Shown here: piece by piece, positions 5,503-28,657 of the stretch | Layout of the letters: every line of letters begins with the position of its first letter | Numbering within the stretch: position 1 is the first letter of the stretch | Source of the DNA: a virus | Direction: 5' to 3' (one strand) | Length of the DNA: 28,657 bases | Virus genome (UHGV): UHGV-0074437 | Translations under genes and position numbers: made by a program | The notes under the pieces: generated by a model | Seen by the model: the letters and a program-made list of their open reading frames with translations, nothing else | Databases searched by the model: none | Told to the model about the DNA's origin: nothing

Positions 5503-7125
5503 ATGCCGTTACCATTTCCCTTCGATTTTAAACATCCTGATTACCAGATGGTTTTTGAATGGCGGATGGAACGCCTACAGCGCATTCGCCAGAATCCTGA
5601 AATATTGCCTGCACTAAAACAGTTTTACCGAACCAACCCGGCTCAGTTCATCATCGACTGGGGCATGACAACGGACCCGCGTAATATTGATTATGGCCTG
5701 CCGGTGACCATTCCGTTTTTACTCTTCCCTAAGCAGGAGGAGTGGATCCACTGGATTATGGAGCGCTGGGGCAATCGGGAGAATGGTATTACCGAAAAAT
5801 CCCGTGAAATGGGACTCAGTTGGACCGCGATCGGACTGGCCTGCTCGCTTTGTCTCTTCAACAAAGAAATGGTTATCGGTTTCGGCTCCCGTAAAGAGGA
5901 ATACGTCGACAGCACCGGGGACCCGAAAGCATTGTTCTGGAAGGCGCGCAAGTTCGTGGAAACACTACCTGTAGAGTTTCGCGGTTCGTGGAGCGAGAAG
6001 AAGCACGCGCCATATATGCGTGTTGAGTTTCCCGATACTGGTGCCGTTATCAAAGGCGAGGCTGGCGACAATATCGGTCGTGGTGACCGTACCACGCTCT
6101 ACCTGGTGGATGAGGCTGCATTCCTCCAGCGTCCTCTGCTGATTGACGCGGCGCTGTCGCAAACCACCCGCTGCCGTATCGACCTGAGTTCGGTTAACGG
6201 CATGGCGAACCCGTTCGCGCAGAAGCGTCACGGCGGGAAGATACCGGTATTCACATTCCACTGGCGGGATGATCCTCGCAAGGATGAAGAGTGGTATCGC
6301 AGGGAATGCGAGAAAATCGATAATCCGGTGGTGGTGGCACAGGAACTTGATCTGAACTACAGCGCATCAGCGGAAGGCGTCCTGATTCCATCCGAATGGG
6401 TACAGGCTGCCGTTGATGCGCATATCAAACTTGGTATCCAGCCAACAGGCAAACGACTTGGCGCGATGGATGTCGCTGATGAAGGCAGGGACAAAAATGC
6501 ATTTTCCACCCGTCATGGCTTCCTCCTGGAAAATGTGCGGGAATGGTCCGGTGTGGGCAGCGACATTTATCAGTCCGTCGAGAAGGTCTTCGGTTTTTGC
6601 GAACAGGACAACCTCGAAGAGTTTCGCTTTGACGAGGACGGGCTGGGCGCTGGCGTTCGCGGCGATGCACGCGCTATCAACGAACTGCGTAACGCTGCGC
6701 GCCGACCGTCAATACTCGCCACACCGTTTCGAGGTAGTGGCGCGGTATTTGATCCGGATGATGAAGCTGTTCGCGGGGACAACGGGCAAGCCGCCCGCCT
6801 GAACAAGGACTTCTTCGCTAACGCCAAGGCCCAGAGCTGGTGGCGGTTACGTAAACTTTTTCAGAATACCTGGCGCGCCGTGGTTGAAGGTATGGCTTAC
6901 AACCCGGACGAAATCATCTCAATCAGCAGTGGCATGGCACTCAAAGATAAACTCATCATCGAGCTTTCGCAGCCGACCTATTCCATTAATGGTGTGGGAA
7001 AAATCGTTATTGATAAACAGCCTGACGGCACCAAGTCGCCGAACCTCGCCGACTCGGTGATGATCAGCTACGCGCCAATGAATTCAGCCCTGAACATCTG
7101 GGAGCTGCTAGGGAGACAGGCCTGA
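5503..7125 (+). CDS. Terminase large subunit
   Basis: 540-aa ORF starting 2 nt after the TerS stop; size, position, a candidate ATPase Walker-B-like segment ([11 protein letters not shown]) and C-terminal nuclease-like acidic residues consistent with TerL. Confidence 0.88.
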
Positions 7126-8591
7126 TGGCACGAAACAAGCAAGCCTCTCAGCGAACGGCGCAGGCCACCGCTGATGGCTACGAGAACTTTGTCGCCCGCG
7201 TGGGGATGCAGACGCCTAACCAGCATTCAGCATCGACCTACCGGGCGAACTTCACCAGCCGCAACCGCATGCTGGTGGAATGGTCCTATCGTTCGTCCTG
7301 GATCATCGGCGAAGCGGTCGACGCTATCCCGGATGATATGACCCGCAAAGGCATTCGCATTACTTCGGAAATTGATGCAAAAGATCGCGGCATTCTCGAA
7401 TCACAACTTGATGAGTTGCAGATCTGGGATGCGCTGAACGACGTGCTGAAATGGTCTCGCCTCTACGGCGGCGCGGTCGGCTTCATCATGATCGAGGGGC
7501 AGGCACCAATGACCCCGCTGCGGCTCGAAACCATTGGAGAAGGCAAGTTTAAGGGCATTCTCCCGCTCGACCGCTGGATGATTAACCCGGTGCTGACACG
7601 CCGCATTAAAGAGATGGGGCCGGACCTCGGCAAGCCTGAGTTTTACGACGTGGTGACCACCGCAACGGGCATTCCGGCCTGGCGCATCCATCACAGCCGC
7701 CTGATCCGCTTCGACGGGGTGACGCTGCCATTCCAGCAGAAGATGACCGAAAACGAATGGGGAATGTCGGTTGTAGAGCGAATCTGGGATCGGCTTACTG
7801 CGTTCGACAGCGCCACTGTCGGCGCGGCGCAGCTGGTCTACAAAGCGCATTTGCGTACCTACAGCGTGGAGAAGCTACGCGAGCTTATCGCACTTGGTGG
7901 TCCTGCGTATGAAGCGCTGCTGAAGAACATCGACCTGATCCGCCAGTTCCAGAGCAATGAAGGCATGACGCTCATGGACTCGCGGGATAAGTTCGAAACC
8001 CACCAGTACAGCTTCAGCGGTCTGGATGACATTCTTTCGCAGTTCGCTGAGCAGATCAGCGGTGCCGTTGGTATCCCGCTGGTGCGACTGTTCGGTCAAT
8101 CCCCGAAAGGCTTCTCTACTGGTGACGCAGACCTCGCCAACTATTACGACCGGGTGAGCTCATTGCAGGAACGCCGCTTACGGATGCCGATGCGCCGGAT
8201 ACTGGACATTATGCACCGCTCGGAACTCGGTAAGCCGCTGCCGGACGATTTCACGTTTGAGTTTAACCCGCTCTGGCAAATGTCTGATGTCGATCGCTCA
8301 ACGGTGGCGTTAAACACTACCAACGCAATCAGTACGGCGCTGGGTGATGGTCTGATGACACTGAAAGCCGCTATGACCGATTTGCGCGAAAATTCTGACG
8401 TAACCGGCATCGGGGCGTCCATTACCGACGAGGACATAGAGAATGCCGAAGACGAAGCGCCGCCAGGCATCGGCGAACTTGGCGACAAACCGCCAGAGTC
8501 GCCAGGCGGAGATCCGATATCGAACGAGCCTACGGCAGATAGCGCGGGCGGTCGGGGATATCGTAAATGGTCGCTACGATGGTTCAAATGA
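7125..8591 (+). CDS. Portal protein
   Basis: 488-aa ORF overlapping the TerL stop by 1 nt (TGATG); size and position after TerL; acidic C-terminal tail; sequence resembles the DUF1073-type portal family as recalled. Confidence 0.82.
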   Translation: MARNKQASQRTAQATADGYENFVARVGMQTPNQHSASTYRANFTSRNRMLVEWSYRSSWIIGEAVDAIPDDMTRKGIRITSEIDAKDRGILESQLDELQIWDALNDVLKWSRLYGGAVGFIMIEGQAPMTPLRLETIGEGKFKGILPLDRWMINPVLTRRIKEMGPDLGKPEFYDVVTTATGIPAWRIHHSRLIRFDGVTLPFQQKMTENEWGMSVVERIWDRLTAFDSATVGAAQLVYKAHLRTYSVEKLRELIALGGPAYEALLKNIDLIRQFQSNEGMTLMDSRDKFETHQYSFSGLDDILSQFAEQISGAVGIPLVRLFGQSPKGFSTGDADLANYYDRVSSLQERRLRMPMRRILDIMHRSELGKPLPDDFTFEFNPLWQMSDVDRSTVALNTTNAISTALGDGLMTLKAAMTDLRENSDVTGIGASITDEDIENAEDEAPPGIGELGDKPPESPGGDPISNEPTADSAGGRGYRKWSLRWFK

Positions 8592-9210
8592 CAGTGTCAC
8601 CGAAATAATGGATGCGCTGGAGCGCTACAGCGAAATCATCACCCCCTGGGCGACGAAGGTTGCTGAGAACTTTACCGCCGACATTGCGCGCCAGAATGAA
8701 AAGCAGTGGCGTCAGCACAGCAGGAACATCAGCGCAGAGCTGCGCAACATGGTCGACCGCGCCCCGGTAGGCCAGGTGATGAAATCCATCGTCGCCGAGC
8801 AAATTAAGTACATCAAGTCACTGCCTCTTGAGGCCGCCGATCGGGTGTATGACATTCAGAACAAGGCCATCGAGGCCGTTGTGTCTGGTGGCCGCGCTGA
8901 GCCATTCGCGAAAGAGATAGCTGCGTCCGGTGACGTGTCACGCTCACGAGCGAACCTTATCGCCCGTACCGAGCTTGGACGCGCAACCGGCGCGCTCGAT
9001 CAGGCGCGTGCGCTGTCAATCGGCTCGAATGGTTATATCTGGCGTACAGCCGAAGATGGCGACGTCCGGCATTCTCATCGGGAGATGGAAGGTAAGTTTG
9101 TCGAATGGGGCAAACCTCCAACGCTTGATGGCATGACCGGTCACGCTGGCGAGCTCCCGAACTGCCGCTGTTACAAAGAAATCGTTTTTAATGAAGGTGT
9201 ATTCAAATGA
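8443..9210 (+). CDS. Head morphogenesis protein (Mu F / SPP1 gp7-like)
   Basis: 255-aa ORF; C-terminal region [47 protein letters not shown] fits the Phage_Mu_F family pattern; GAGGA RBS 7 nt before the ATG at 8443. That start implies a 149-nt overlap with the portal gene; an alternative in-frame ATG at 8608 lies just past the portal stop, so the start is uncertain. Confidence 0.7.
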
Positions 9211-11273
9211 TTCGCATCAGGGTTTTTAACGCTGACTCAGACCGCTGGATCACCGTCAGGCCAAACGGGCCATACCATGAGGGACGCCCGGTAAAAATTG
9301 ATGAGAATGGAGAAATCAGGGCTGGCATGGGGGGGAAGTTCAACGGTAAGAAGATTGGGGAGATCGGGAAGGATTTTTCCGGCCCACAAAGTCCACCACA
9401 GCAGGTAATTCAGGAACGACTGAAAGAAAAAACGGTGAGGCAGGATCCTGCTGTTGCTGAAAGGCGAAAAGGTGACGAGGAACGTGCAGCAGCGGAAAAA
9501 AGGCTTCGCACCGCACTAAAAAAAGCCATCGAAGGGCAGCGTGGAAAAGAAGTACAGAATCCGCCGGAAGCACACCAGCGCTCCACGCAGCCTGAGCCCG
9601 GAAAACTTGACAGTAACGCTATGAAATCCTGGGCTTTATTGTGGAAGCGCGGAAATCCGGTGAAAACGAAAAATACTTCACTGAAACGTGCGAATGAAAC
9701 ACTTACTGCCAATGGATTTCATCCTTTACCTGATAATGTCGCCAGAATAGCAACAAACCGAATTGGTCATTCATTTGCCGCAGGCAATGGTATTGGCCTT
9801 AACGAACTGCTGTCCACCAAGGAACGGCTTTATGACATCGGTGGACGAAATTACTTAAGAGGCTTATTCACCGCTAATGAAGTGGAACAATTAACAAACG
9901 CCGGATTACTGACCCCTGTTTCCGGTGGCGGACTGTTTGATCACATCCCGACAGACAAAGGCGTTACTTTCTTTTCGTCAGTCATACATTCTCAACAGGA
10001 ACAAATGTTGAGTACCGCAAAAGGAACCCGCGACGCGGCGTATACAAAAGGCATCAGGTATTTTTTCAATACCCGGCTGGGGGAAACCCGCTATCAGCTG
10101 GCTGACGGCTCGCTGCTGTGCAAAGACGTGCCGATAGGACGAACAGGTAAGCAGCTCTATGGTGCTGATGACCTGCCAAACCTCAAACCCGACAAGCTCG
10201 GTGAGATAGTCGTCACGCGTTCTCCTGAGCAGGTATTCCATCCCGCCACGCTTGCCTCATTCGAAGGAATGAGTATCACGGTGTTGCATCCCGAGGATGA
10301 AAACGGGGATGTGCGGCTGGTGAATCCAGAGAACTGGAAAGAGCTTGCTGTCGGGCATCTTCAGAATGTCCGGCGCGGGACGGGTGTGCAGTCTGATTTG
10401 ATGCTGGCTGACCTTATCGTCAAAGACGAAAGCGCCATTCAGCTTATCGAAGATGGCCTGCGCGAAGTGTCGTGTGGCTATGACGCGGAGTACGAGCAGA
10501 CCGAGCCAGGTAAAGCCGAGCAGGTCGATATTACCGGAAACCATGTGGCTCTTGTCCCTAAAGGCAGAGCCGGAAATCGTTGTGCAATTGGAGACAGAGA
10601 CACAATGGCAAATCAAAAGAAAAGCTGGTGGACCCGCATGCGCACGGCCATCAAAACGGGTGACGCTGACACCATGAACGAACTGCTGGACTCTGCGCCA
10701 GCGGCGGTAACGGGTGATGAAGGGGATCTGCCCAGCGGCGTTAACCTCAACATTAACCTTTCACCGCAGCAACCATTGCCGGACAAAAAGCCGGAAATGG
10801 GCGGAGAGCCAACCGGCGACGGCGAGGACGATATCAAAACCTTGCTTAAAGCCCTGCTGGCTAAGCTGGAAGGAAATGCGACGGGCGATAACGACAATAA
10901 GCCTGACGATAATCCGACCGGTGACGGCGAGGACGATGAAGAGGAAACCACGATTACTGGTGACTCAGCCTGGCGTGCCGAAGTTATCGTTCCGGGTATC
11001 GATCTGAGCCGTAAGATGAAACCGACCGCGTTCAAACGCGAGGTTCTGGCTTCCGCTGACAAAACGCTGGTTCGCCAGATAGTCGGCGATGCGGATATCC
11101 GCAAATTGCCGAAACAATCGGTCAACATGGCGTTTAATGCCGTGTCAGAGATTGCCAAAGGGCGAAACACCCGCAGCACCACGGGCGATGCACAACGTCC
11201 AAATATGGGCATGACCAGCATCGCTTCCCTGAACAAACAAAACGCCGACTTCTGGTCTAACCGCAAAGGATAA
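9207..11273 (+). CDS. Large multi-domain head protein: unassigned N-terminal domain, central prohead-maturation-like domain (DUF2213-like as recalled), acidic Gly/Asp-rich scaffold-like C-terminus
   Basis: 688-aa ORF overlapping the Mu-F-like gene stop (ATGA); occupies the scaffold/protease slot between head morphogenesis and capsid genes; C-terminal repeats TGDGEDD...[10 protein letters not shown] are typical of scaffolding regions; the N-terminal ~270 aa have no motif I recognise. Confidence 0.65.
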
Positions 11274-11277
11274 TCCA

Positions 11278-11781
11278 ATGACTGCATATCTGTACCGGAT
11301 GCCTGTTGGCATTGCCGGGGCTATCTCTCGCCCGCAGGACTTAACCGTCGAACCGGTGGTCCTTAAATCCGATAACGCCTTTGCTGCCTACGGGCTGGCT
11401 GGTAAATACGATGATGACGGTTTTTTCGTGCCGCTGGAGGACGGTGACACCGCCGACAAGGTGAAGGGGATCTACGTTCGTCCGTATCCGACCACATCGC
11501 AGCCAGACATGGTTCGCCAGGTGGGGACGGATAAGAATTTCCCGGGCGACGCCATGAAACGTGGCTACATGACCGTTAACCTTGGATCTGGCTTCGATGC
11601 CAGCACCATCAAAAAAGGTGATCCTGTCTACGTGGTCGTTTCGCTCGATTCAACCATTGACGTGCCGCTGGGCGGCTTCATGTCCACGTCCGTCAGTGGC
11701 AAAAACGTGGCGCTGACCAACGCCGAATTCACAGGGGCCGGTGACGCTAACGGCAATGCAGAAATCTCCTGGAAGATTTAA
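11278..11781 (+). CDS. Putative head structural or decoration protein
   Basis: 167-aa ORF with AAAGGA RBS, located between the scaffold-like gene and the major capsid gene; function assigned from position only. Confidence 0.45.
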   Translation: MTAYLYRMPVGIAGAISRPQDLTVEPVVLKSDNAFAAYGLAGKYDDDGFFVPLEDGDTADKVKGIYVRPYPTTSQPDMVRQVGTDKNFPGDAMKRGYMTVNLGSGFDASTIKKGDPVYVVVSLDSTIDVPLGGFMSTSVSGKNVALTNAEFTGAGDANGNAEISWKI

Positions 11782-21118: not shown

Positions 21119-21463
21119 GTGAGACATTTACTTTGCACTGTTACCGTGTTCGCGGTGCTTATATCAGCACCAGCTTTTGCGGATCAGCAATGTGGTGATT
21201 TTAAAATCCATTGGGCAGATGATGGCTTAGCCAGAATCAATGGCGCAAAGCCAGAAATGCAAAAAATCACCTTCCTGAAAAACAAAGGCGATTATAACAA
21301 TATCAAGATGGATTGGCGTATGGCTACCGATCAGCCTGGAAGATGGGTTGGTCTTGAGTACATCAATCGAAACGGCAAGATAATTCTCAATGCCCAGTGG
21401 CTGCAAGCCAGCATGAATGCGCCGCGTCAGTATGCAACATACGACTGCCGAAAAGTAAAATAG
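21119..21463 (+). CDS. Small secreted (periplasmic) protein of unknown function; moron candidate
   Basis: 114-aa ORF with GTG start at 21119 and GAGGTGGGG RBS; clear Sec signal peptide (hydrophobic core, AFA-DQQ cleavage site); two cysteines in the mature part; region is markedly AT-rich relative to the flanking structural genes. Confidence 0.55.
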   Translation: MRHLLCTVTVFAVLISAPAFADQQCGDFKIHWADDGLARINGAKPEMQKITFLKNKGDYNNIKMDWRMATDQPGRWVGLEYINRNGKIILNAQWLQASMNAPRQYATYDCRKVK

Positions 21464-21481
21464 CCCGCCAGATAGGCGGGC
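21463..21481 (-). terminator. Intrinsic terminator for the minus-strand moron gene
   Basis: Perfect 7-bp GC stem GCCCGCC-agata-GGCGGGC; a U-rich tract follows on the minus strand (plus-strand AAAAGTAAAATA at 21450-21462), whereas no T-tract follows on the plus strand. Confidence 0.55.
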
Positions 21482-21486
21482 ATGCG

Positions 21487-21777
21487 TCAAAAATATTGAG
21501 CTTTAATTATAATAAACACAATAATTACGAACAGGATGTTTCTAATTATTTTTTGCTTATGAGTAAGTTGTTTTTTTTCTGTCGATTTCCCGGGAGAGTA
21601 AAGGTTAGTGGTATGCGACAGCCCCGTGCCGGGAAGGCCATTTGTCATCTTTACGCCTTTTTTCCCGATGTTAATGGTGGAACCTTTACCACCAATTGAA
21701 GTGCTTACTCCGCTTTTGCTAATGTTGATCGCGAGTCCGGGCGCAATCCGGATTCTTTTGCGAAATCTAAAGCCCAT
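21487..21777 (-). CDS. Small membrane-anchored protein, DUF4236-like N-terminus (as recalled) with C-terminal transmembrane helix; moron candidate
   Basis: 96-aa ORF on the strand opposite to the whole structural operon; strong RBS AGGAG 6 nt before the ATG; Gly/Lys/Ser-rich N-terminal segment GFRFRKRIRIAPGLAINISKSGVSTSIGGKGSTINIGKKGV; C-terminal hydrophobic helix NILFVIIVFIIII; AT-rich codon usage. Confidence 0.55.
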   Translation of the reverse strand: MGFRFRKRIRIAPGLAINISKSGVSTSIGGKGSTINIGKKGVKMTNGLPGTGLSHTTNLYSPGKSTEKKQLTHKQKIIRNILFVIIVFIIIKAQYF

Positions 21778-21964
21778 TTGTTACTCCTGTAGTCAAGAAT
21801 GCGATGGTGCAGGTCCACTCTATGGCGGCTTCATGGCTGAAATTGATTTTTAATGCTTACTTGTTGCAAATATATCCTAATACACCTTGTGAATATGTGC
21901 CATTGCAGCGGAAAAGCCTTACTTCACACTGATGTAGCTTAGTTACTAAGAGATAATTGATACC

Positions 21965-21990
21965 AAACCAGCTTCGGCTGGTTTTTTTAT
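21965..21990 (+). terminator. Intrinsic terminator (UUCG-loop hairpin plus T7 tract) immediately upstream of the baseplate spike gene
   Basis: AAACCAGC-ttcg-GCTGGTTT followed by TTTTTTT, then GGGG and the ATG at 22000; no annotated plus-strand gene ends here. Confidence 0.55.
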
Positions 21991-21999
21991 GGGGTTTTT

Positions 22000-22740
22000 A
22001 TGCCAATTCCTACTCAATCACAGATCGGCGGCGAGCAGCAGACCGCGCAGGCCATTGCCGATTCGGTGTCTACTCAGATGCGCGTAGCGATGCCTGGCAT
22101 CATTCAGTCGTTCGATCCTGACGCTGTAACCTGCACAGTAGAGGTGGCGCTTCGCGGTATTGTTGGCGACGACTCCACCGAATTAAAACCGCTGGTGGAT
22201 GTGCCTGCCATCTTCCCGCGCGGAGGCGGTTGCACGCTGACCTTTCCGGTAAAAGAAGGAGATGAGTGCCTGCTGATCTTTGCCGACCGTTGCATCGATT
22301 TCTGGTGGCAGAGCGGCGGCGTTCAGGAGACCGTCGACCCGCGCCAGCATGACTTATCTGATGCGTTCGCCATCGTTGGCCCGCAGTCGCAAGCGCAAAA
22401 AATCAGCGGTATCAGTACCAGCGCCGCGCAGCTGCGAACCGATGATGGTGCGGCGTTCGTAGAGGTTTCCGCAGGACATAACATCACCGTTCAAACACCG
22501 GGCCAGCTCACGGCTACGGCTGAAGGTGGAACGACAATCACATCCCCGACTATCACGCTGAACGGCAACGTAACGATTAATGGCAATCTGTCTCAGGGAA
22601 TGGGAGAAAGTGGTGGTACTGCGACGATGCTTGGGCCGGTTACGGTAACGAATGATGTGACAGCTTCAGGTATAAGTGTCGCCACGCATAAACATGGCGG
22701 AGTTCAGACAGGCGGGGGAACTACTGGAGGGCCGCAATAA
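22000..22740 (+). CDS. Baseplate spike / assembly protein V-like (Mu gp45 type)
   Basis: 246-aa ORF; N-terminal OB-fold-like region then a Gly/Thr-rich repetitive C-terminus (TITSPTITLNGNVTINGNLSQG...), typical of gpV/gp5-type spikes; followed by W-like and J genes. Confidence 0.7.
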   Translation: MPIPTQSQIGGEQQTAQAIADSVSTQMRVAMPGIIQSFDPDAVTCTVEVALRGIVGDDSTELKPLVDVPAIFPRGGGCTLTFPVKEGDECLLIFADRCIDFWWQSGGVQETVDPRQHDLSDAFAIVGPQSQAQKISGISTSAAQLRTDDGAAFVEVSAGHNITVQTPGQLTATAEGGTTITSPTITLNGNVTINGNLSQGMGESGGTATMLGPVTVTNDVTASGISVATHKHGGVQTGGGTTGGPQ

Positions 22741-23093
22741 TGCGATACCGACGAGAAGATGCTGACGGCGATTACACTTTCGGGCAAGGTGACGACACCT
22801 TCCTTATCGACAGTCCGGAATGTGTCGCCCAGGCCGTAAAAACCCGTTTCGAGCTCTGGCGCGGTCAGTGGTTTCTCGATCTGACGGAAGGCACGCCGTA
22901 TGTTCAGTCAGTGCTTGGGAAACAGCGATCAGACGTCTACATCCTGGCTATACGCGAACGCATACAGGACACGCCGGGCGTTCTGTCGATTCTTTCCTTC
23001 GATACCAATTATGACGGCACCAGCCGCCGCGTCACTTTCACTTCCTCCATTGACACAATCTACGGCCAGACGACTGTAACAAGCGAGGCATAA
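22740..23093 (+). CDS. Baseplate wedge protein (GPW / gp25-like)
   Basis: 117-aa ORF overlapping the V-like stop (ATAATG), of the size and position of P2 gpW / Mu gp46. Confidence 0.6.
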   Translation: MRYRREDADGDYTFGQGDDTFLIDSPECVAQAVKTRFELWRGQWFLDLTEGTPYVQSVLGKQRSDVYILAIRERIQDTPGVLSILSFDTNYDGTSRRVTFTSSIDTIYGQTTVTSEA

Positions 23094-24293
23094 ATGGCTT
23101 TGAACCTCGACACGCTGGGGCTATCGGCAACGGTAACCGCCCAGGGGATTAGTGCGCCTGATTACCAGACAATCCTCGATACACTGACCAGCTATTTCAG
23201 GCAGATTTACGGTAGTGATGCCTACCTAGAACCAGACAGCAAAGATGGGCAAATGGTCGCGCTGGTGGCTCTGGCTGTGCATGATGCTAACAATACCGCT
23301 ATCGAGATCTACAACTCGTTTTCACCGACGACAGCGCAGTCCGCAGCGCTTAGCAGCAATGTGAAAATTAACGGGATCACGCGAAAAGTAGCGACAAACT
23401 CTACTGCTGACCTTCTGTTAACCGGTACGGCGGGCACGACTATCACGAATGGCTCCGCACGGGATAAAAACGGCATTATCTGGAATTTTCCCGCGAGTGT
23501 AGCAATCGGGGTTGATGGTACTGTGCTGGTGACGGCCACATGTGCGAATAGCGGTTCGGTTGCGGCGCTGGCCGGGTCGATTACCACTATCAACACGCCG
23601 ACCCGTGGCTGGGCATCGGTAACCAACCCGGCGGCGGCCACCGTAGGCGCACCGGCTGAAACCGACGCAGAGCTGCGCATCAGGCAGGGACAAAGCGTAG
23701 CGCTACCATCCCTCACACCGTTTGAAGGTGTCGATGGTGCGATCGCCAACGTTGCAGGCGTGACACGTCACAAGCTCTACGAGAATGATACTGGTGTCAC
23801 CGACAGCAACGGGCTACCGCCTCATTCCATTTCCGCCATCGTTGATGGAGGTGATGTTGCCGAGATAGCCCAGACAATAAGGGGAAACAAAGGGCAGGGA
23901 ACAGCCACCTACGGGACAACATCTGTCACGGTGCCGGACACCTACGGTAACCCACACGTGATCAGTTTTTCGCGGTCTACTGATGTCCCGATTTACGGGC
24001 ATATCACCCTGAAAGCATTCACCGGCTACACGTCGCAAATTGGTGTACAGATTCAGCAGGCCGTCGCGGATTACATCAACGGGCTGACGATCGGCGACGA
24101 TGTGCTGCTGAGCAGGATCTACTCTCCGGCTAACCTCGGCGTAGTGAGTGGTGGCAACGCGCGCTACTACGACATACAGGAGCTGTTGATTGGCAAATCA
24201 GCTGGTAGCGTCGCGGCGGCAAACATCATCATCGCCTATAACGAATCCGCGTCGTGTAAGCCCGAAAATATTGTTCTAACGGTGACGTCATGA
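23094..24293 (+). CDS. Baseplate J-like protein
   Basis: 399-aa ORF of the size and position of Baseplate_J family proteins (P2 gpJ / Mu gp47), between the W-like and I-like genes. Confidence 0.7.
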   Translation: MALNLDTLGLSATVTAQGISAPDYQTILDTLTSYFRQIYGSDAYLEPDSKDGQMVALVALAVHDANNTAIEIYNSFSPTTAQSAALSSNVKINGITRKVATNSTADLLLTGTAGTTITNGSARDKNGIIWNFPASVAIGVDGTVLVTATCANSGSVAALAGSITTINTPTRGWASVTNPAAATVGAPAETDAELRIRQGQSVALPSLTPFEGVDGAIANVAGVTRHKLYENDTGVTDSNGLPPHSISAIVDGGDVAEIAQTIRGNKGQGTATYGTTSVTVPDTYGNPHVISFSRSTDVPIYGHITLKAFTGYTSQIGVQIQQAVADYINGLTIGDDVLLSRIYSPANLGVVSGGNARYYDIQELLIGKSAGSVAAANIIIAYNESASCKPENIVLTVTS

Positions 24294-24970
24294 GCAAGTA
24301 CACGGACTTAATCACCAACTATCACGCCACGAAGCCGAAATTTTTTGATCACGTCGACCTGAGCACCCGGCCACTGATTGATATCACTGCCGCCACCAGA
24401 GGGCTGCTAAGCGCTTTCGATATTGATACCGCCGTCGGCGTCCAGCTCGATACGCTCGGCCTCTGGATTGGCCGTAGTCGAATAGTCAGCCAGCCGATAA
24501 GTGGCGTTTATTTCAGTCTGGACACTGACGGGCTTGGGTTTGATCAGGGAGTATGGCAAGGCCCATATGACCCCGATTCGGGTTACACCACGCTGAGCGA
24601 CGAAACTTATCGCATCGTTCTTAAGGCGAAAATCGCTATCAACAACTGGGACGGCCGGAATGATTCGCTGCCTCCCATCCTTGACGCTGCAACTGCAGGC
24701 TCTGGCCTGAAGATGCAAATCGTCGACAACCAGGACATGACGATCTCGGTCTGGCTTTTTCCCGAGACTGACATTTCAGATGTGTCTCTCGAACTGATCG
24801 CCGCTATTAAACAGGGCTATCTCACTGTTAAAGCTGCTGGGGTGTGGGCCGGAGACGTTGAAACGCCATCGGTAGAAACACCATCCGAGGGCACGAAATT
24901 TTTTGGTTTTGATATGGATAACGAATACATCGCCGGATTTGACGATGGCGCATGGGGGAAATTACTGTAA
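24290..24970 (+). CDS. Baseplate/tail protein I-like (Mu gp48 position)
   Basis: 226-aa ORF overlapping the J stop (ATGA), directly upstream of the tail fibre gene. Confidence 0.55.
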   Translation: MSKYTDLITNYHATKPKFFDHVDLSTRPLIDITAATRGLLSAFDIDTAVGVQLDTLGLWIGRSRIVSQPISGVYFSLDTDGLGFDQGVWQGPYDPDSGYTTLSDETYRIVLKAKIAINNWDGRNDSLPPILDAATAGSGLKMQIVDNQDMTISVWLFPETDISDVSLELIAAIKQGYLTVKAAGVWAGDVETPSVETPSEGTKFFGFDMDNEYIAGFDDGAWGKLL

Positions 24971-25866
24971 TGGCTAAGAACGATTTTAAACCGTTTGCTA
25001 CCGGCTCTGGCGCAAACGTAATGTCCCAGACTGACTGGGAAGCACTGCCTGCGCTTTTGGCTGGATTTCAGTCTGGCAAGGCATCCAGTGCACAAATTAA
25101 CAAGGCATTTCGACAGTCCAGCTTTATCGCGGCCGCACTCGCTCAGTTTATTGCTGATACCAACGGTACTGATGTCCTGGATAATGGGAATTTTTCTGAC
25201 ATTGTTCTTAAATTGAAGTCTGCAATATCTACTGCTTCTACAGGACGTTTGTTGAATGTCAGAACGTTCACATCATCAGGAACGTATACGCCAACAGCAG
25301 GTACTAAGTTTGTTGTTGTGGAAGTTCAGGGCGGCGGTGGCGGCAGTGGCGGTGTGCCAGCTACTGGGTCCAGTAGCGTTGCTGCATCTGGCGCTGGCGG
25401 TGCAGGTGCTTATGCTAAAGCTTATATCACATCCGGATTTTCTGGCGTGTCTGTTACTGTAGGTGCTGGTGGTGCTGCTGGATCATCAGGCGGCGGTGAT
25501 GGTGGCGCGGGAGGCACCTCAAGCTTTGGGTCATTAGTCTCTTGCCCAGGTGGAACTGGTGGCGGCTCTACGGGAAGTGTCGCTGTGTCGTTCCCAACTT
25601 CTCGCGGAGGCAGTACAGAAACGGCAGCCCCTACAGGCGGTAACATTATTTCATCAAAAGGAAAGGCGGGTGCTGGTTCTACCGTAGTAAATGGAACTGT
25701 CGGTAACTTTGGCACAGGTGCGGCATCGCCATTCTCAGCAGGTGGAACTGGTGGCGATGGGGAGAACGGTTCTGGTGGCGGTGGATGGATTAACTTTGTC
25801 AGCCAATCCGCTCGCGCTGGCTACGCAGGTGGCAAAGGTCTGGTTGTTGTATGGGAATATGCTTGA
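24970..25866 (+). CDS. Tail fibre protein with a glycine-rich C-terminal domain
   Basis: Open frame 24952-25866; preferred start ATG 24970 (overlaps the upstream stop as TAATG, GGGGGA RBS), giving N-terminus MAKNDFKPFATGSGANVMSQTDWEALP; C-terminal half is a Gly-rich low-complexity region (GGGGGSGG, GAGGAAGSSGGGDGGAGG, GGTGGDGENGSGGGG). Confidence 0.75.
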   Translation: MAKNDFKPFATGSGANVMSQTDWEALPALLAGFQSGKASSAQINKAFRQSSFIAAALAQFIADTNGTDVLDNGNFSDIVLKLKSAISTASTGRLLNVRTFTSSGTYTPTAGTKFVVVEVQGGGGGSGGVPATGSSSVAASGAGGAGAYAKAYITSGFSGVSVTVGAGGAAGSSGGGDGGAGGTSSFGSLVSCPGGTGGGSTGSVAVSFPTSRGGSTETAAPTGGNIISSKGKAGAGSTVVNGTVGNFGTGAASPFSAGGTGGDGENGSGGGGWINFVSQSARAGYAGGKGLVVVWEYA

Positions 25867-25914
25867 TGAGCACAGTTGATTGTTGGTTTTGATATGAACC
25901 AGTAATTAACCATT

Positions 25915-25950
25915 AAAGCAGGGACTTTGTAACATAGCTCCCTGCTTTAT
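25915..25950. terminator. Candidate bidirectional terminator between the convergent tail fibre and acyltransferase genes
   Basis: 10-bp inverted repeat AAAGCAGGGA / TCCCTGCTTT (25915-25924 and 25939-25948) around a 14-nt loop, flanked by A-rich and T-rich sequence, between the two stop codons (25866 and 25978). Confidence 0.4.
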
Positions 25951-25977
25951 ACTCTAAATATTATGCAACCCTCACTT

Positions 25978-27141
25978 CTATCTGGCTTGAGATATTGAAA
26001 TAGATTTTGTTTTCCGCCCATACATCAAACGGCTAAGCGATATAGATGGGTTATCTATAAGCTTTGTAAATAAATGTGCTATTATTATGCTTGTGGGAAT
26101 CGTAAACACCCATACATAAATTGGGCTGTATTTATATAGTAAAAGTAACCCTATAGAAAGAATTGTATAATGTATAAGGTATAGCGAGAAAGATATTCTC
26201 CCAAGATAAAGACCAACAGACAGGAACTTACCCTCTTTTAATTTAAGTGAGCACACGATTAATCCAACGGCACCGATAGATGTCACAATATCACCAAGAC
26301 CTCTGTGTGATAAAGTCCATCCATTATTAAATGGGTAGCAATACAGCATTAAAGAAATTATCACCAGCAGGAATATGATTTTCTTGTCTATATTATTCAT
26401 TATTTCATTAGTTCTTTTCACATTTAAAGCAAGGTATGCACCAATTGTAAAAAATAACGAGTAATGAACTGTTAACAGGCTTGAGCTTAGGGGGTCTATA
26501 CCGTATAGATGCGGTTTAGAGTTCATGATAAATATACTAAGCATCGATGCCAACAAGGATAGCAGCACAAAGCGAAAGCCAAGTTTTTTCGTAAAGTACA
26601 GAATTAAAGGAAACGCTATCGAAATTCTAGCCTCGTAAACTAAGGACCATGCTGGAGGGTTTATTTCGAAGTAATTGTAAAACCCCAGCATGCCAATGTG
26701 ATTAACTATTGTTGCTAGATTGAAGTCTGGTTTTGCTACGCCCATCCATCCTTTTTCCCAGGAAAAACCACTTGATTTCATGACTGCAAAGACAATAGCC
26801 ACAAATAATAATGATGCAATGAATGGAATGTATAGGCGAGCTACCCTGGCTAACAGATATCTAAACATATTAAATGGATTTGCTGAGTTGATCATCATTG
26901 TTAAAGCAAACCCACTCAACACAAAGAAAACAATAACAGCTTGATGTCCAGCCCACAGAAAGCGAAATGGTGACCATTCAAGATACGGCCAGATAGTGGG
27001 GTTGTTATATAATCCAGCAACGGTTGTGTGAGCAAGCAAAACCGTTAGAGCAGCATAACCCCTAACTGCATCAAGAGATGGGATTCGTTTTGTATCTTTC
27101 ATTACTATTCTCATTTTAGTTTGTTGAGTCAATACTAACAT
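25978..27141 (-). CDS. Acyltransferase family 3 integral membrane protein (putative O-antigen / LPS O-acetyltransferase, lysogenic-conversion type)
   Basis: Minus-strand ORF with about 10 predicted transmembrane segments; N-terminal region KRIPSLDAVRGYAALTVLLAHT...FFVLSGFALT matches the acyltransferase_3 (OafA/Oac-type) signature; strongly AT-rich. Three candidate in-frame ATG starts (27141, 27114, 27102); the third gives MKDTKRIP, the usual N-terminus for this family. Confidence 0.8.
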   Translation of the reverse strand: MLVLTQQTKMRIVMKDTKRIPSLDAVRGYAALTVLLAHTTVAGLYNNPTIWPYLEWSPFRFLWAGHQAVIVFFVLSGFALTMMINSANPFNMFRYLLARVARLYIPFIASLLFVAIVFAVMKSSGFSWEKGWMGVAKPDFNLATIVNHIGMLGFYNYFEINPPAWSLVYEARISIAFPLILYFTKKLGFRFVLLSLLASMLSIFIMNSKPHLYGIDPLSSSLLTVHYSLFFTIGAYLALNVKRTNEIMNNIDKKIIFLLVIISLMLYCYPFNNGWTLSHRGLGDIVTSIGAVGLIVCSLKLKEGKFLSVGLYLGRISFSLYLIHYTILSIGLLLLYKYSPIYVWVFTIPTSIIIAHLFTKLIDNPSISLSRLMYGRKTKSISISQAR

Positions 27142-27457
27142 CCATCTGGAGGTTTAAGAAACATCCTCAGCATCCATAACACTTAAGGCTGGCGCCAGCA
27201 CAGAGAAAGCGAAATGGTGACCATTCAAGATACGGCCAGATAGTGGGGTTGTTATATAATCCAGCAACGGTTGTGTGAGCAAGCAAAACCGTTAGAGCAG
27301 CATAACCCCTAACTGCATCAAGAGATGGGATTCGTTTTGTATCTTTCATTACTATTCTCATTTTAGTTTGTTGAGTCAATACTAACATCCATCTGGAGGT
27401 TTAAGAAACATCCTCAGCATCCATAACACTTAAGGCTGGCGCCAGCACAGAGAAAGC
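26957..27457. repeat. Tandem direct duplication (2 x 247 bp plus 7 bp) covering the 5' end and upstream region of the acyltransferase gene
   Basis: 26957-27203 is repeated identically at 27204-27450 (checked at several anchor points); identity continues 7 nt (AGAAAGC, 27451-27457) into a third unit; the junctions coincide with the short direct repeat AGAAAGC. Confidence 0.85.
27167..27388 (-). pseudogene. Truncated duplicate of the acyltransferase 5' end (62 identical N-terminal codons plus an 11-codon out-of-context tail)
   Basis: Minus-strand ORF whose first 62 residues are identical to the acyltransferase N-terminus, then diverge at the duplication junction into CAGASLKCYGC-stop. Confidence 0.7.
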
Positions 27458-27550
27458 ACTTGCCGCACTTCATTAAAATTTCGCAAATTTTTCTAATTGG
27501 CAAGAATGAATATCATCCGGACCAAGTAGTTATGACTAACCATGAACAGC

Positions 27551-27575
27551 AAACCCCGCTTCGGCGGGTTTTTTA
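27551..27575 (+). terminator. Intrinsic terminator (UUCG-loop hairpin plus T-tract) immediately upstream of the RBS of the next plus-strand gene
   Basis: AAACCCCGC-ttcg-GCGGG followed by TTTTTTATT, then AAGGAG RBS and the ATG at 27595; same architecture as the 21965-21990 element. Confidence 0.5.
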
Positions 27576-27594
27576 TTGCACTAAGGAGTGCTCA

Positions 27595-27978
27595 ATGCAA
27601 TACGCATTAGTCAAAGACGGTGTCGTTGAAAACATAGTTGAATGGGATGGGACCGGAAATCCCTTTCCTGATTATGAAGTGATTGCAGTAAGCGCAGGCG
27701 GCGTGGGTGTGGGATGGTTATGGCAGGATGGGGTATTCGTTAACCCTAACGCACCATCGGAACCGACTGATGCCGAGTTGTATGACGCTGATCTTGCGGC
27801 GATCAACGCAGAGTACGAAAAGGACAAAAAGGACCTGGTATACGAATACGCAACTATCGGCCTTTTCGACGGTGCAAATGAGGACGCAAAGAAAGCGGCT
27901 GTGTACAGCAAGCTGCAGGCGCGGATTCAAAAGTACGCTTCTGATGTAGAAGCTCTGGATGAGAAATATGGGGGTTAA
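27595..27978 (+). CDS. Hypothetical protein, possibly tail-fibre-associated (assembly/chaperone candidate by position)
   Basis: 127-aa product from the ATG at 27595 with a strong AAGGAG RBS; the open frame extends upstream to 27460 but that part overlaps the terminator-like hairpin; acidic C-terminal half; no motif recognised with certainty. Confidence 0.5.
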   Translation: MQYALVKDGVVENIVEWDGTGNPFPDYEVIAVSAGGVGVGWLWQDGVFVNPNAPSEPTDAELYDADLAAINAEYEKDKKDLVYEYATIGLFDGANEDAKKAAVYSKLQARIQKYASDVEALDEKYGG

Positions 27979-27979
27979 C

Positions 27980-28147
27980 ATGGCAGAACAAGCAGAAAGC
28001 AGCGCAGCAACTACCGTACCCGATACATGTCCGAACTGTCTGGAAGTTGGGACGGTGAGCATCATTACAAAGACGATCGGAGGGGTAGTTAAATACTACT
28101 ACCAGTGTTCGTCTTGCGGCTATCGCTGGCCGGTACCAGCTGCATAA
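27980..28147 (+). CDS. Small zinc-ribbon protein (CxxC-x22-CxxC)
   Basis: 55-aa product from the ATG at 27980 (GGGGG 5 nt upstream, 1-nt gap after the preceding stop); cysteine pairs CPNC and CSSC separated by 22 residues. Confidence 0.5.
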   Translation: MAEQAESSAATTVPDTCPNCLEVGTVSIITKTIGGVVKYYYQCSSCGYRWPVPAA

Positions 28148-28208
28148 ATTTATTCCCCATCAAAACAAACCGATACCGCGCTTCGGTAGTAAAGAGGCGC
28201 ATCTTCAG

Positions 28209-28252
28209 TTGATCTGCTGGAACCTGAAATTATACTGTATGCGTATACAGTA
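28209..28252 (+). promoter_or_regulatory. SOS-regulated promoter: -35 TTGATC (28209-28214), -10 TATACT (28231-28236), overlapping a LexA box TACTGTATGCGTATACAGTA (28233-28252)
   Basis: The 20-bp palindrome matches the E. coli LexA-box consensus CTGT-N8-ACAG with TA-rich flanks; the sigma70-like hexamers are spaced 16 nt apart and overlap the box; located 15 nt upstream of the umuD-like start codon. Confidence 0.75.
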
Positions 28253-28267
28253 TTTTGGAGGTGCATC

Positions 28268-28657
28268 ATGGGATTTCCATCGCCAGCAGCAGACTACGTT
28301 GAAGAACGCATATCACTCGATAAGCGTCTTATCGCTCATCCTTCAGCCACCTACATGATGGTAGCGGGCTCTACATACCTGCGCGCTGGGATCATGAAGG
28401 GCGCAATGCTTATCGTCGACTCGTCGCTGACGCCGAAGGATGGTTCTCTGCTTGTCTGTGCTGTTGATGGTGAGTTCAGGATCATGCGTTACAGGACGCT
28501 GCCGCATCCTTGCCTGGAGAACCCTGAGAATGGAAGGAGGGAGCCACTACCATCAAAGGATGAGGTATCTGATACATCGCGGCCAGTATTCGGGGTGATT
28601 ACGTACAGCATCAACGATGCTCGCTCTGGCGAGTTCGACGACTGCCCGGTGATGTGA
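28268..28657 (+). CDS. UmuD'-like S24-peptidase-fold protein (natively N-truncated UmuD homolog, humD-like)
   Basis: 129-aa ORF with GGAGG RBS; N-terminus MGFPSPAADYVEERI aligns with E. coli UmuD beginning at the Cys24-Gly25 autocleavage site (as recalled); S24 core motifs present (HPSATYMM, GAMLIVDSS, VCAVDGEF). There is no in-frame upstream ATG. The stop is at the last base of the window. Confidence 0.8.
   Translation: MGFPSPAADYVEERISLDKRLIAHPSATYMMVAGSTYLRAGIMKGAMLIVDSSLTPKDGSLLVCAVDGEFRIMRYRTLPHPCLENPENGRREPLPSKDEVSDTSRPVFGVITYSINDARSGEFDDCPVM

Follow-up and report, generated by a model that had tools for sequence, protein, structure and literature searches.

The tail fibre gene of an Escherichia coli prophage is followed, on the opposite strand, by an AT-rich gene for a membrane acyltransferase of the acyltransferase-3 (AT3) family. 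The prophage is represented by UHGV virus genome UHGV-0074437, a stretch of 28,657 nucleotides that was analysed as a whole and is called the window here. We think it probable that this gene is a prophage moron encoding an AT3-only O-acyltransferase, whose target would be a glycan of the cell surface, most likely O-antigen, matched to the fibre tip of its own phage. The strongest new evidence on its function is that the fibre tip and the acyltransferase gene are replaced together in sibling prophages. AT3 morons behind phage receptor-binding genes are already known, such as oac of Sf6, and the E. coli example is NeaT; the series of fibre-tip/AT3 swaps at one locus is new. An earlier note on this DNA had proposed lysogenic conversion that blocks superinfection by phages with the same LPS receptor, a plausible reading that the evidence supports in part, and had held that the linkage to the fibre is not accidental. 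The gene order in phages Sf6, Sf101 and BTP1, the homologs found beside other fibres and the joint replacement described below all speak for that view.

The window prophage is integrated beside dacD-sbmC-yeeA. A sibling in E. coli SY3626 occupies the same dacD site and is 97% identical in DNA to window positions 21220-25311 and 27555-28657, whereas the intervening 25312-27554 has no DNA similarity to SY3626. This exchangeable cassette (25312..27554) holds the distal domain of the fibre, from codon 120-121 or thereabouts, together with the AT3 gene and the sequence upstream of it. On the left, similarity breaks off at about fibre codon 120, where the glycine-rich distal domain begins; the right breakpoint is a hairpin at 27555-27568. 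The first 120 residues of the SY3626 fibre are identical to those of the window fibre; the whole protein is 61% identical and carries a different glycine-rich tip. Its AT3 is 26% identical to that of the window, has a GC content of 0.37 and is co-directional with the late operon. Prophage LR-71-1, also at the dacD site, has a 365-amino-acid (aa) glycine-rich fibre, a 131-aa gene and then a 381-aa AT3, co-directional with the late operon. In BEN2908, again at this site, a 381-aa glycine-rich fibre is followed by a convergent 345-aa AT3 with a GC content of 0.33. The window, SY3626, LR-71-1 and BEN2908 provide four tip/AT3 pairs with unrelated AT3s, no two of which exceed 28% identity.

Does the pair also stay together when the rest of the phage diverges? 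In the loci L003, L005 and L006 the baseplate genes are 65-80% identical to those of the window, and from about 24750 onwards identity is close to 100% through the fibre, the AT3 gene and the right arm. Because tip and AT3 are replaced jointly in the siblings and conserved jointly on the diverged backbone of these loci, recombination keeps them together in both directions. Different tips have also repeatedly gained unrelated AT3s as neighbours.

Homologs of the window AT3 lie beside fibres in lambdoid, P2-like, Mu-like and SEN34-like prophages. Their neighbourhoods were read by targeted Pfam and PHROG checks and a local hidden Markov model of the glycine-rich domain, which replaced a crude pass over open reading frames (ORFs) at 80 IMG/VR loci that had given a mixed picture. 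A Citrobacter lambdoid prophage has a 56% identical AT3 beside a fibre with a Peptidase_S74 domain. At L015 a 59% homolog closes the order wedge-1, glycine-rich fibre, Caudo_TAP, AT3. Homologs also lie by the fibre in L010 (43%, adjoining an integrase) and in the P2-like L009 (42%); the backbones of these two differ, yet their AT3s are 60% and their fibre tips 65% identical. In the IMG/VR loci L019, L024 and L027, which include a Mu-Gp48 backbone, 37-42% homologs lie by fibre genes. The 88% variant of L184 has a near-identical fibre C-terminus downstream. As a separate observation, L024 (IMG/VR 3300048862_000012) carries at 5986-10490 its 37% AT3, a 490-aa protein and then a convergent glycine-rich fibre. 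The 490-aa protein has weak methyltransferase and nucleotide-diphospho-sugar-transferase matches, all under the Pfam gathering cut-offs, and the locus could be a larger glycan-modification cassette beside a fibre.

The carrier is a SEN34-like temperate myovirus with a contractile tail. Its tail and baseplate module, with an SLT-domain tape measure, Dit-like, Pam3_gp18 and E217_gp41 proteins, a spike, a sheath initiator, baseplate J and a wedge-1/DUF2612 protein, is that of Salmonella phage SEN34 (Brunovirus). Citrobacter phage Omnitron shares 87% DNA identity with it as far as the beginning of the fibre gene. What occupies the slot behind the fibre varies within this group. SEN34 carries another AT3 there, 24.5% identical to that of the window. 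The AT3s of SEN34, SY3626, LR-71-1 and BEN2908 share with that of the window the backbone, the slot and an AT-rich composition (GC 0.33-0.37), and each stands with its own fibre tip; they differ from it in sequence (at most 28% identity), in orientation and in position relative to the 127- or 131-aa gene. In CX12 and 730V1 the slot holds a fibre-assembly gene and an integrase only. In Omnitron, UPEC 26-1, AR_0119 and M172-1 (L001 and L191-L193), which use other attachment sites, it holds a Pin/Gin-type invertase and an inverted alternative fibre tip. The slot thus seems to carry two alternative strategies, host-range switching or receptor modification.

The window AT3 is known only from draft assemblies and metagenomes; GCA_013424585.1, GCA_012745905.1 and GCA_037892085.1 are among the assemblies with the identical protein, P0001. 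Related baseplate modules occur in 575 of 5,426 complete E. coli genomes, where homology always stops within about the first 15-80 fibre codons, and at the DNA level none of the 5,426 has the AT3. A megablast search of these genomes with 25700-27600 found only a 46-bp match in the flank, which led to the SY3626 sibling. The same segment had no close DNA relative among 50,697 phage records, and tblastn against phages returned remote AT3s only, at 30% identity or less. Among species-representative genomes no homolog exceeded 40% identity, the best being from Caballeronia and Paraburkholderia.

In its longest form the gene is a minus-strand ORF at 25978..27141 that encodes 387 aa. Translation likely starts at the ATG at 27102, because homologs and most database copies begin at the corresponding MKDTKR (M14 of the 387-aa form) and P0001, 'acyltransferase [E. 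coli]', is 100% identical to the window protein at that length of 374 aa. The coding sequence (CDS) would then be 25978..27102 on the minus strand, 374 aa, with its stop codon at 25978-25980; variants of 84-88% identity have the same length. The 13-codon in-frame upstream extension MLVLTQQTKMRIV of the longest ORF (27103..27141, minus strand) is probably untranslated. A Shine-Dalgarno sequence is missing ahead of both 27141 and 27114, and 27102 is preceded by no more than a weak GAGAA. The earlier note had the gene extend over 25870-27141; its right end is indeed that of the longest ORF, while its left end is a base near the fibre stop and the ORF ends at 25978. The note's description of the gene as antisense between the fibre gene and the next plus-strand gene is correct, since these flank it at 24952-25866 and 27595-27978, and it is convergent (tail-to-tail) with the fibre gene. 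Between the two stops, in a 111-bp spacer (25867-25977), an inverted repeat at 25915..25948, AAAGCAGGGA...TCCCTGCTTT, gives RNAfold stems on both strands and is a candidate bidirectional terminator; a consensus terminator scan made no call there. With the hairpin at 27555-27568 the AT3 gene is bounded by hairpins on both sides, in keeping with a transcription unit of its own. Upstream of the gene the sole strong -35/-10 match, TTGACT-17-AATAGT at 27132-27104, was rejected as a promoter of the annotated CDS because its -10 element ends 2 nt before the start codon. Phase variation by Dam and OxyR, as in gtr and oafB, was also considered and rejected, as the upstream GATC cluster is absent and a single GATC lies inside the gene.

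The gene is as AT-rich as had been noted. Its GC content is 0.371, whereas 1125-bp segments from the rest of the window average 0.525 (standard deviation 0.033, minimum 0.440), which gives a z score of -4.7; its GC content at third codon positions (GC3) is 0.35. This composition is foreign, and we take the gene to have been horizontally acquired. All contigs examined have the full-length ORF intact, and the ratio of non-synonymous to synonymous substitution rates (dN/dS) against the 84-88% variants is 0.14-0.18. The protein is under purifying selection, and the gene is likely to be functional.

Membership of the acyltransferase-3 family, as the earlier note proposed, is borne out by a match to Pfam Acyl_transf_3 (PF01757; E=1.2e-31, 110.4 bits, where the cut-off is 31), which spans residues 21-358 in the numbering of the 387-aa form and positions 2-324 of the 326 in the profile, and by a match to PHROG 3333, 'O-acetyltransferase' (E=1.4e-40). 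An AlphaFold2 (AF2) model built on 48 homologs has a mean predicted local distance difference test score (pLDDT) of 90.3 and a predicted template modelling score (pTM) of 0.90. It contains ten long helices (8-26, 52-73, 79-110, 151-174, 176-195, 204-226, 240-255, 264-285, 292-322 and 327-361), in keeping with the roughly ten transmembrane (TM) helices expected earlier. In a Foldseek search of the Protein Data Bank (PDB) human HGSNAT was the sole fold relative, with a probability of 0.96 and template modelling scores of 0.40-0.45, and the rest was noise. This match agrees with the TmAT superfamily as proposed in the literature (PMC12423673). Searches of PDB sequences, PADLOC and Rfam gave no match.

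The family motifs are all present. R14-X10-H25 (R14-GYAALTVLLA-H25) lies in the first transmembrane helix (TMH1), V56-IVFFVLSG-F65 follows, and R86-VA-R89 forms the RXXR motif at the cytoplasmic face of TMH3. R14, H25, F59, F60, S63, G64, R86 and R89 are invariant in the 48 homologs, as are W152 and E157. Motifs of the forms R/K-X10-H, RXXR and V-X-X-F-F-X-(I/V/L)-S-G-(F/W/Y) have been described for OafA/OafB, Oac and Lag-1 (PMC9833829; PMC9558356). PF01757 is the sole Pfam match, with no fused periplasmic SGNH domain, and the protein ends about 13 residues past the last TM helix. It thereby resembles Oac, WbaK, Lag-1 and WecH in architecture and differs from the AT3-SGNH proteins OafA, OafB and OatA. 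On every aspect of family and architecture that could be tested, the protein is an AT3-only member of the AT3 family.

How might such an enzyme work? By analogy with the mechanism model for AT3 proteins, an acyl-CoA, most likely acetyl-CoA, would enter a cytoplasmic cavity lined by R14, R86 and R89, and the acyl group would be presented at the periplasmic face near H25. From there it would pass to a sugar in one of the polysaccharides of the envelope, of which O-antigen is the most probable. The surface glycan of the lysogen that is recognised by the glycine-rich tip of the phage itself would be altered, with the result that the same or similar phages adsorb less, that the serotype changes, or both. 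Fibre tip and AT3 would in this scheme travel as one exchangeable module, 25312-27554. We infer which acyl donor and which acceptor are used, that the prophage expresses the gene, and that exclusion follows. The model for OafA/OafB (Pearson 2020; Newman 2023) resembles the window protein in its ten TM helices, in R14 and H25, which are essential in OafA/OafB and have identical numbering, and in the position of RXXR on TMH3; W138 and E143 of OafA/OafB correspond to W152 and E157. The window protein has no SGNH domain, and therefore the final transfer, unlike that in OafA/OafB, would be made by the AT3 itself or by another partner. This step is an open question for all AT3-only enzymes (PMC9558356).

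The earlier note had suggested a comparison with characterised O-acetyltransferases. Family likeness was found, and specific orthology was not. Over long alignments the window protein is 23% identical to D3 Orf28, 24% to GtrC of BTP1 (GtrC-BTP1) and 27% to OacB, and its 36% identity to Oac covers 83 residues only. Since identities over long alignments are 23-27%, the relation to Oac, OacB, GtrC and D3 Orf28 appears to be one of family level, without orthology. A profile built from the clade of the window protein scored OacB at 83.6 bits, GtrC-BTP1 at 71.7, D3 Orf28 at 59.8, Oac at 45.6, WecH, which acts on enterobacterial common antigen (ECA), at 44.2 and OpgC, which succinylates osmoregulated periplasmic glucans (OPG), at 19.4. 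This ranking of eight reference proteins towards O-antigen enzymes is only suggestive, because the pairwise identities are 23-27% and the acceptor classes of ExoZ, NodX, IcaC and OatA were left out. A 45% homolog from Pseudomonas, P0011, is chromosomal and lies among glycosyltransferases beside a WbpM-like gene and two further AT3s, which makes this an O-antigen-type cluster. The earlier note had allowed that the best homologs might prove unrelated to O-antigen; the eight-protein ranking and the P0011 locus both point towards O-antigen instead. The neighbours of P0010 (40%), a LysR and an MFS gene, were uninformative. We also observed that L013 (Pseudomonas sp. BF-B-26, GCA_019956495.1) has at 7001-11387 three to four AT3 genes by an IS66 fragment and a WbpM-like gene within a polysaccharide cluster, one of these AT3s being the 45% homolog.

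The tail fibre gene (24952..25866, plus strand) encodes 304 aa, or 298 aa from 24970; the N-terminal anchor of the protein is conserved, and its distal domain is rich in glycine. Residues 108-300 match Pfam Gly_rich_2, fibre PHROGs match as well, and there is a weak match to the Pam3 fibre 7yfw. No Caudo_TAP gene accompanies the window's fibre. The GC content of the gene is 0.52 overall, reflecting its glycine codons, and its GC3 is 0.37. Because this GC3 is near the 0.35 of the AT3 gene and unlike the 0.61 of the baseplate and tape-measure genes, the composition suggests a foreign origin for the fibre tip as much as for the AT3, which agrees with joint import. For the Pam3-gp24 type of glycine-rich domain, to which the fibre tip belongs, receptor binding through hypervariable distal loops has been proposed, and the domain has been likened structurally to the S16 gp38 adhesin (PMC9608196).

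The arrangement has precedents. The tailspike and oac of Sf6, the tail protein and oacB of Sf101 and the tailspike and gtrC of BTP1 are all convergent, as are the fibre and AT3 genes of the window. In Sf6 a terminator is annotated between tailspike and oac, where the window has the hairpin at 25915-25948. Oac, OacB and GtrC/OafB also share with the window protein PF01757, R-X10-H, RXXR and FFxxSG, and a location in a temperate phage near the prophage end. Oac and OacB have the same AT3-only architecture, while GtrC/OafB has a fused SGNH domain that the window protein lacks. The carriers differ too. Sf6, Sf101 and BTP1 are P22-like podoviruses with O-antigen-cleaving tailspikes, whereas the window phage has a contractile tail and a short glycine-rich fibre. 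Oac, OacB and GtrC are O-antigen acetylases proven by experiment, and for the window AT3 that role is predicted. Superinfection immunity has been attributed to phage O-antigen modifications (PMC9558356; for phiV10, PMC11854483).

In gene organisation the nearest E. coli counterpart is NeaT (c0970), a 'nomadically evolved' acyltransferase encoded by the P2-like prophage phi-b0847 of strain CFT073. It is a PF01757 protein whose gene has 29.8% GC, is rare in E. coli and occurs in unrelated prophages (Wiles et al. 2013, PMC3573123). NeaT affects virulence, aggregation and macrophage association, and no substrate has been assigned to it (PMC3573123). Like the window AT3, it is encoded by a rare, AT-rich prophage gene that is antisense to the tail genes and directly behind the fibre, in the case of NeaT the fibre and assembly genes. 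Unlike the window AT3, it lies in a P2-like phage, with fibre genes on one side and the sheath gene on the other. The two proteins gave no BLASTP hit at E<=0.01, and against the clade profile NeaT scored 10 bits (E=1.8e-4 in a search of 12 sequences). The authors of the NeaT study counted as homologs proteins with E<1e-6 over >50% of the length (PMC3573123), and the window AT3 falls outside that definition. NeaT is nearer to WecH than to the clade of the window AT3, and beyond family level the two are unrelated.

Several points weigh against an O-antigen acyltransferase matched to the fibre tip. Adhesins of the gp38 type bind outer-membrane proteins rather than lipopolysaccharide (LPS), and an LPS receptor for a fibre likened to them is therefore an assumption. 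Adjacency to a fibre is not obligatory, since the 84% variant in L185 has no fibre downstream (ARAGORN found no tRNA at the end of that locus). In a Mantel test of AT3 against tip divergence over 11 loci the correlation was weak (rho 0.24, p=0.047). Two close pairs drove the correlation, while L038, L040 and L046 ran counter to it, and such co-divergence was dropped as support. Hitch-hiking with the genome's most recombinogenic region could account for some of the linkage. The promoter scan of the upstream region found no convincing promoter for the gene. NCBIfam gave no match and no equivalog, no characterised enzyme is nearer than about 27% identity, and neither sequence search nor Foldseek found a solved AT3 structure in the PDB, so no direct fold comparison could be made. 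The acceptors of AT3-only enzymes include ECA, OPG, capsules, peptidoglycan and secreted glycolipids (PMC9558356). Because these enzymes act on so many glycans, the acceptor cannot be read from the sequence.

This breadth of acceptors also feeds another account of the gene, as a moron for host fitness that acts on ECA, the K capsule or colanic acid, OPG or peptidoglycan, or that changes surface behaviour as NeaT does. The benefit would lie in immune evasion or aggregation, and the position behind the fibre would reflect a late-operon hot-spot for morons and hitch-hiking. NeaT itself, a similarly placed E. coli prophage gene with virulence effects, makes this account attractive, as do the fibre-less L185, the weak AT3/tip co-divergence and the related phages in which the slot holds invertase cassettes or nothing. 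Yet NeaT is unrelated beyond family level, one member of the window clade lies in an O-antigen-type cluster, and the clade profile scores the characterised O-antigen enzymes no lower than WecH and far higher than OpgC. At least four unrelated AT3s have been gained independently by four tips within one lineage and at one site, which position alone explains poorly. We therefore regard this account as unlikely, if worth keeping in mind. It is much harder to believe that the gene is inactive cargo, a decaying or H-NS-silenced remnant whose degeneration shows in the duplication at its 5' end. H-NS typically binds DNA as AT-rich as this in E. coli, a clear promoter was not found, the duplication yields a truncated upstream ORF, and none of the 5,426 complete E. 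coli genomes has the gene. However, the full-length ORF is intact in all contigs examined, the catalytic motifs are all invariant, dN/dS is 0.14-0.18, and the duplication is very recent and leaves a complete gene with its 69-bp upstream region. Decay is, on these grounds, very improbable.

The enzyme might also serve the lytic cycle, masking the receptor on the dying cell and its debris and so freeing progeny, an analogue of receptor-destroying enzymes. The tight linkage of AT3 to the fibre tip would suit such a role, and the AT3s of SY3626 and LR-71-1, being co-directional with the late operon, would be expressed by late read-through. The window AT3, however, is antisense to the late operon with hairpins on both sides, and the modifications made by Sf6, BTP1 and phiV10 act in lysogens (PMC9558356; PMC11854483). 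We give this idea hardly any credence. Our preferred reading remains that of an acyltransferase that modifies, in the lysogen, a glycan matched to the fibre tip. It can be taken further, to a mobile module that recurs throughout this widespread family of contractile-tail prophages of E. coli and other enterobacteria and consists of two matched parts, a receptor-binding domain and the enzyme that masks the same glycan, with breakpoints in the fibre and past the AT3. That extension we put forward tentatively, with more doubt than conviction.

If the AT3 acetylates O-antigen, lysogens would differ from their cured parents in serotype and phage susceptibility. This would bear on E. coli serotyping, on vaccine epitopes and on the choice of therapeutic phages. 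The O-antigen cluster is expected some 20-25 kb past the prophage's far end. The four tip/AT3 pairs at one site form a natural series of exchanges in which a match between fibre specificity and receptor modification can be sought, and therefore make the receptor-masking hypothesis directly testable. The pairing also offers a route to assigning receptors to Pam3-type fibre tips. Were the matched module real, the AT3 allele would predict the glycan specificity of the tip, and each tip/AT3 pair would be a self-exclusion group.

The 5' end of the gene lies in a tandem duplication of 247 bp, which the earlier note overlooked. The gene-proximal copy (26948..27194; repeat family D1) is part of the intact gene, and the distal copy (27195..27441) is 99% identical to it, with two mismatches, at the junction. 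The duplicated unit consists of 69 bp of upstream sequence and the first 180 or so nt of the AT3 gene, and the intact gene keeps its own copy of the 69-bp segment. The ends of the unit are the 16-nt imperfect repeats CCAGCCCACAGAAAGC and CCAGCACAGAGAAAGC, which indicates slipped or illegitimate recombination. The duplication leaves a truncated AT3 fragment ORF at 27167..27349 (minus strand), of 60 aa or of 73 aa from 27388, which contains only the first TM helix and then runs out of frame. The window shares the duplication with L002 (GCA_013424585.1; 100% identical over 10.7 kb), and L003-L007 lack it. Because L004 and L007, which lack it, otherwise have 0-1 mismatch to the window in 9.2 kb, it must be very recent. 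The same 60-aa product was annotated independently, in an ENA assembly (P0097), and the duplication junction is exactly where several partial proteins at NCBI start (P0093); the duplication is therefore not an artefact of a single assembly.

To the right of the cassette, the hairpin at 27555..27568 (plus strand) is GC-rich, is followed by a T-run and was picked up by the terminator scan as terminator-like; homology to SY3626 resumes exactly here. The next gene (27595..27978, plus strand) encodes 127 aa without a Pfam family. Its N-terminus matches phrog_14370, which also includes ORFs of 63-66 aa directly 3' of the glycine-rich fibres in L009 and L010, and a 57% homolog lies directly 3' of the fibre in LR-71-1. 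These positions suggest that the 127-aa protein may be a fibre chaperone or accessory factor parted from its fibre gene by insertion of the AT3.

The last prophage gene before dacD, at 28268-28657 (plus strand) and running off the end of the window, encodes a UmuD-like S24 peptidase (PF00717, PHROG 811); in LR-71-1 it is a frameshifted pseudogene. Further to the left, between the baseplate-hub region and the spike gene, an antisense ORF at 21487-21777 (minus strand) encodes a 96-aa DUF4236 protein in an AT-rich pocket (21501-22000, GC 0.40). It matches no PADLOC model and has many PHROG matches without assigned function. It lies in the same place in SY3626 and LR-71-1, and may be another moron.

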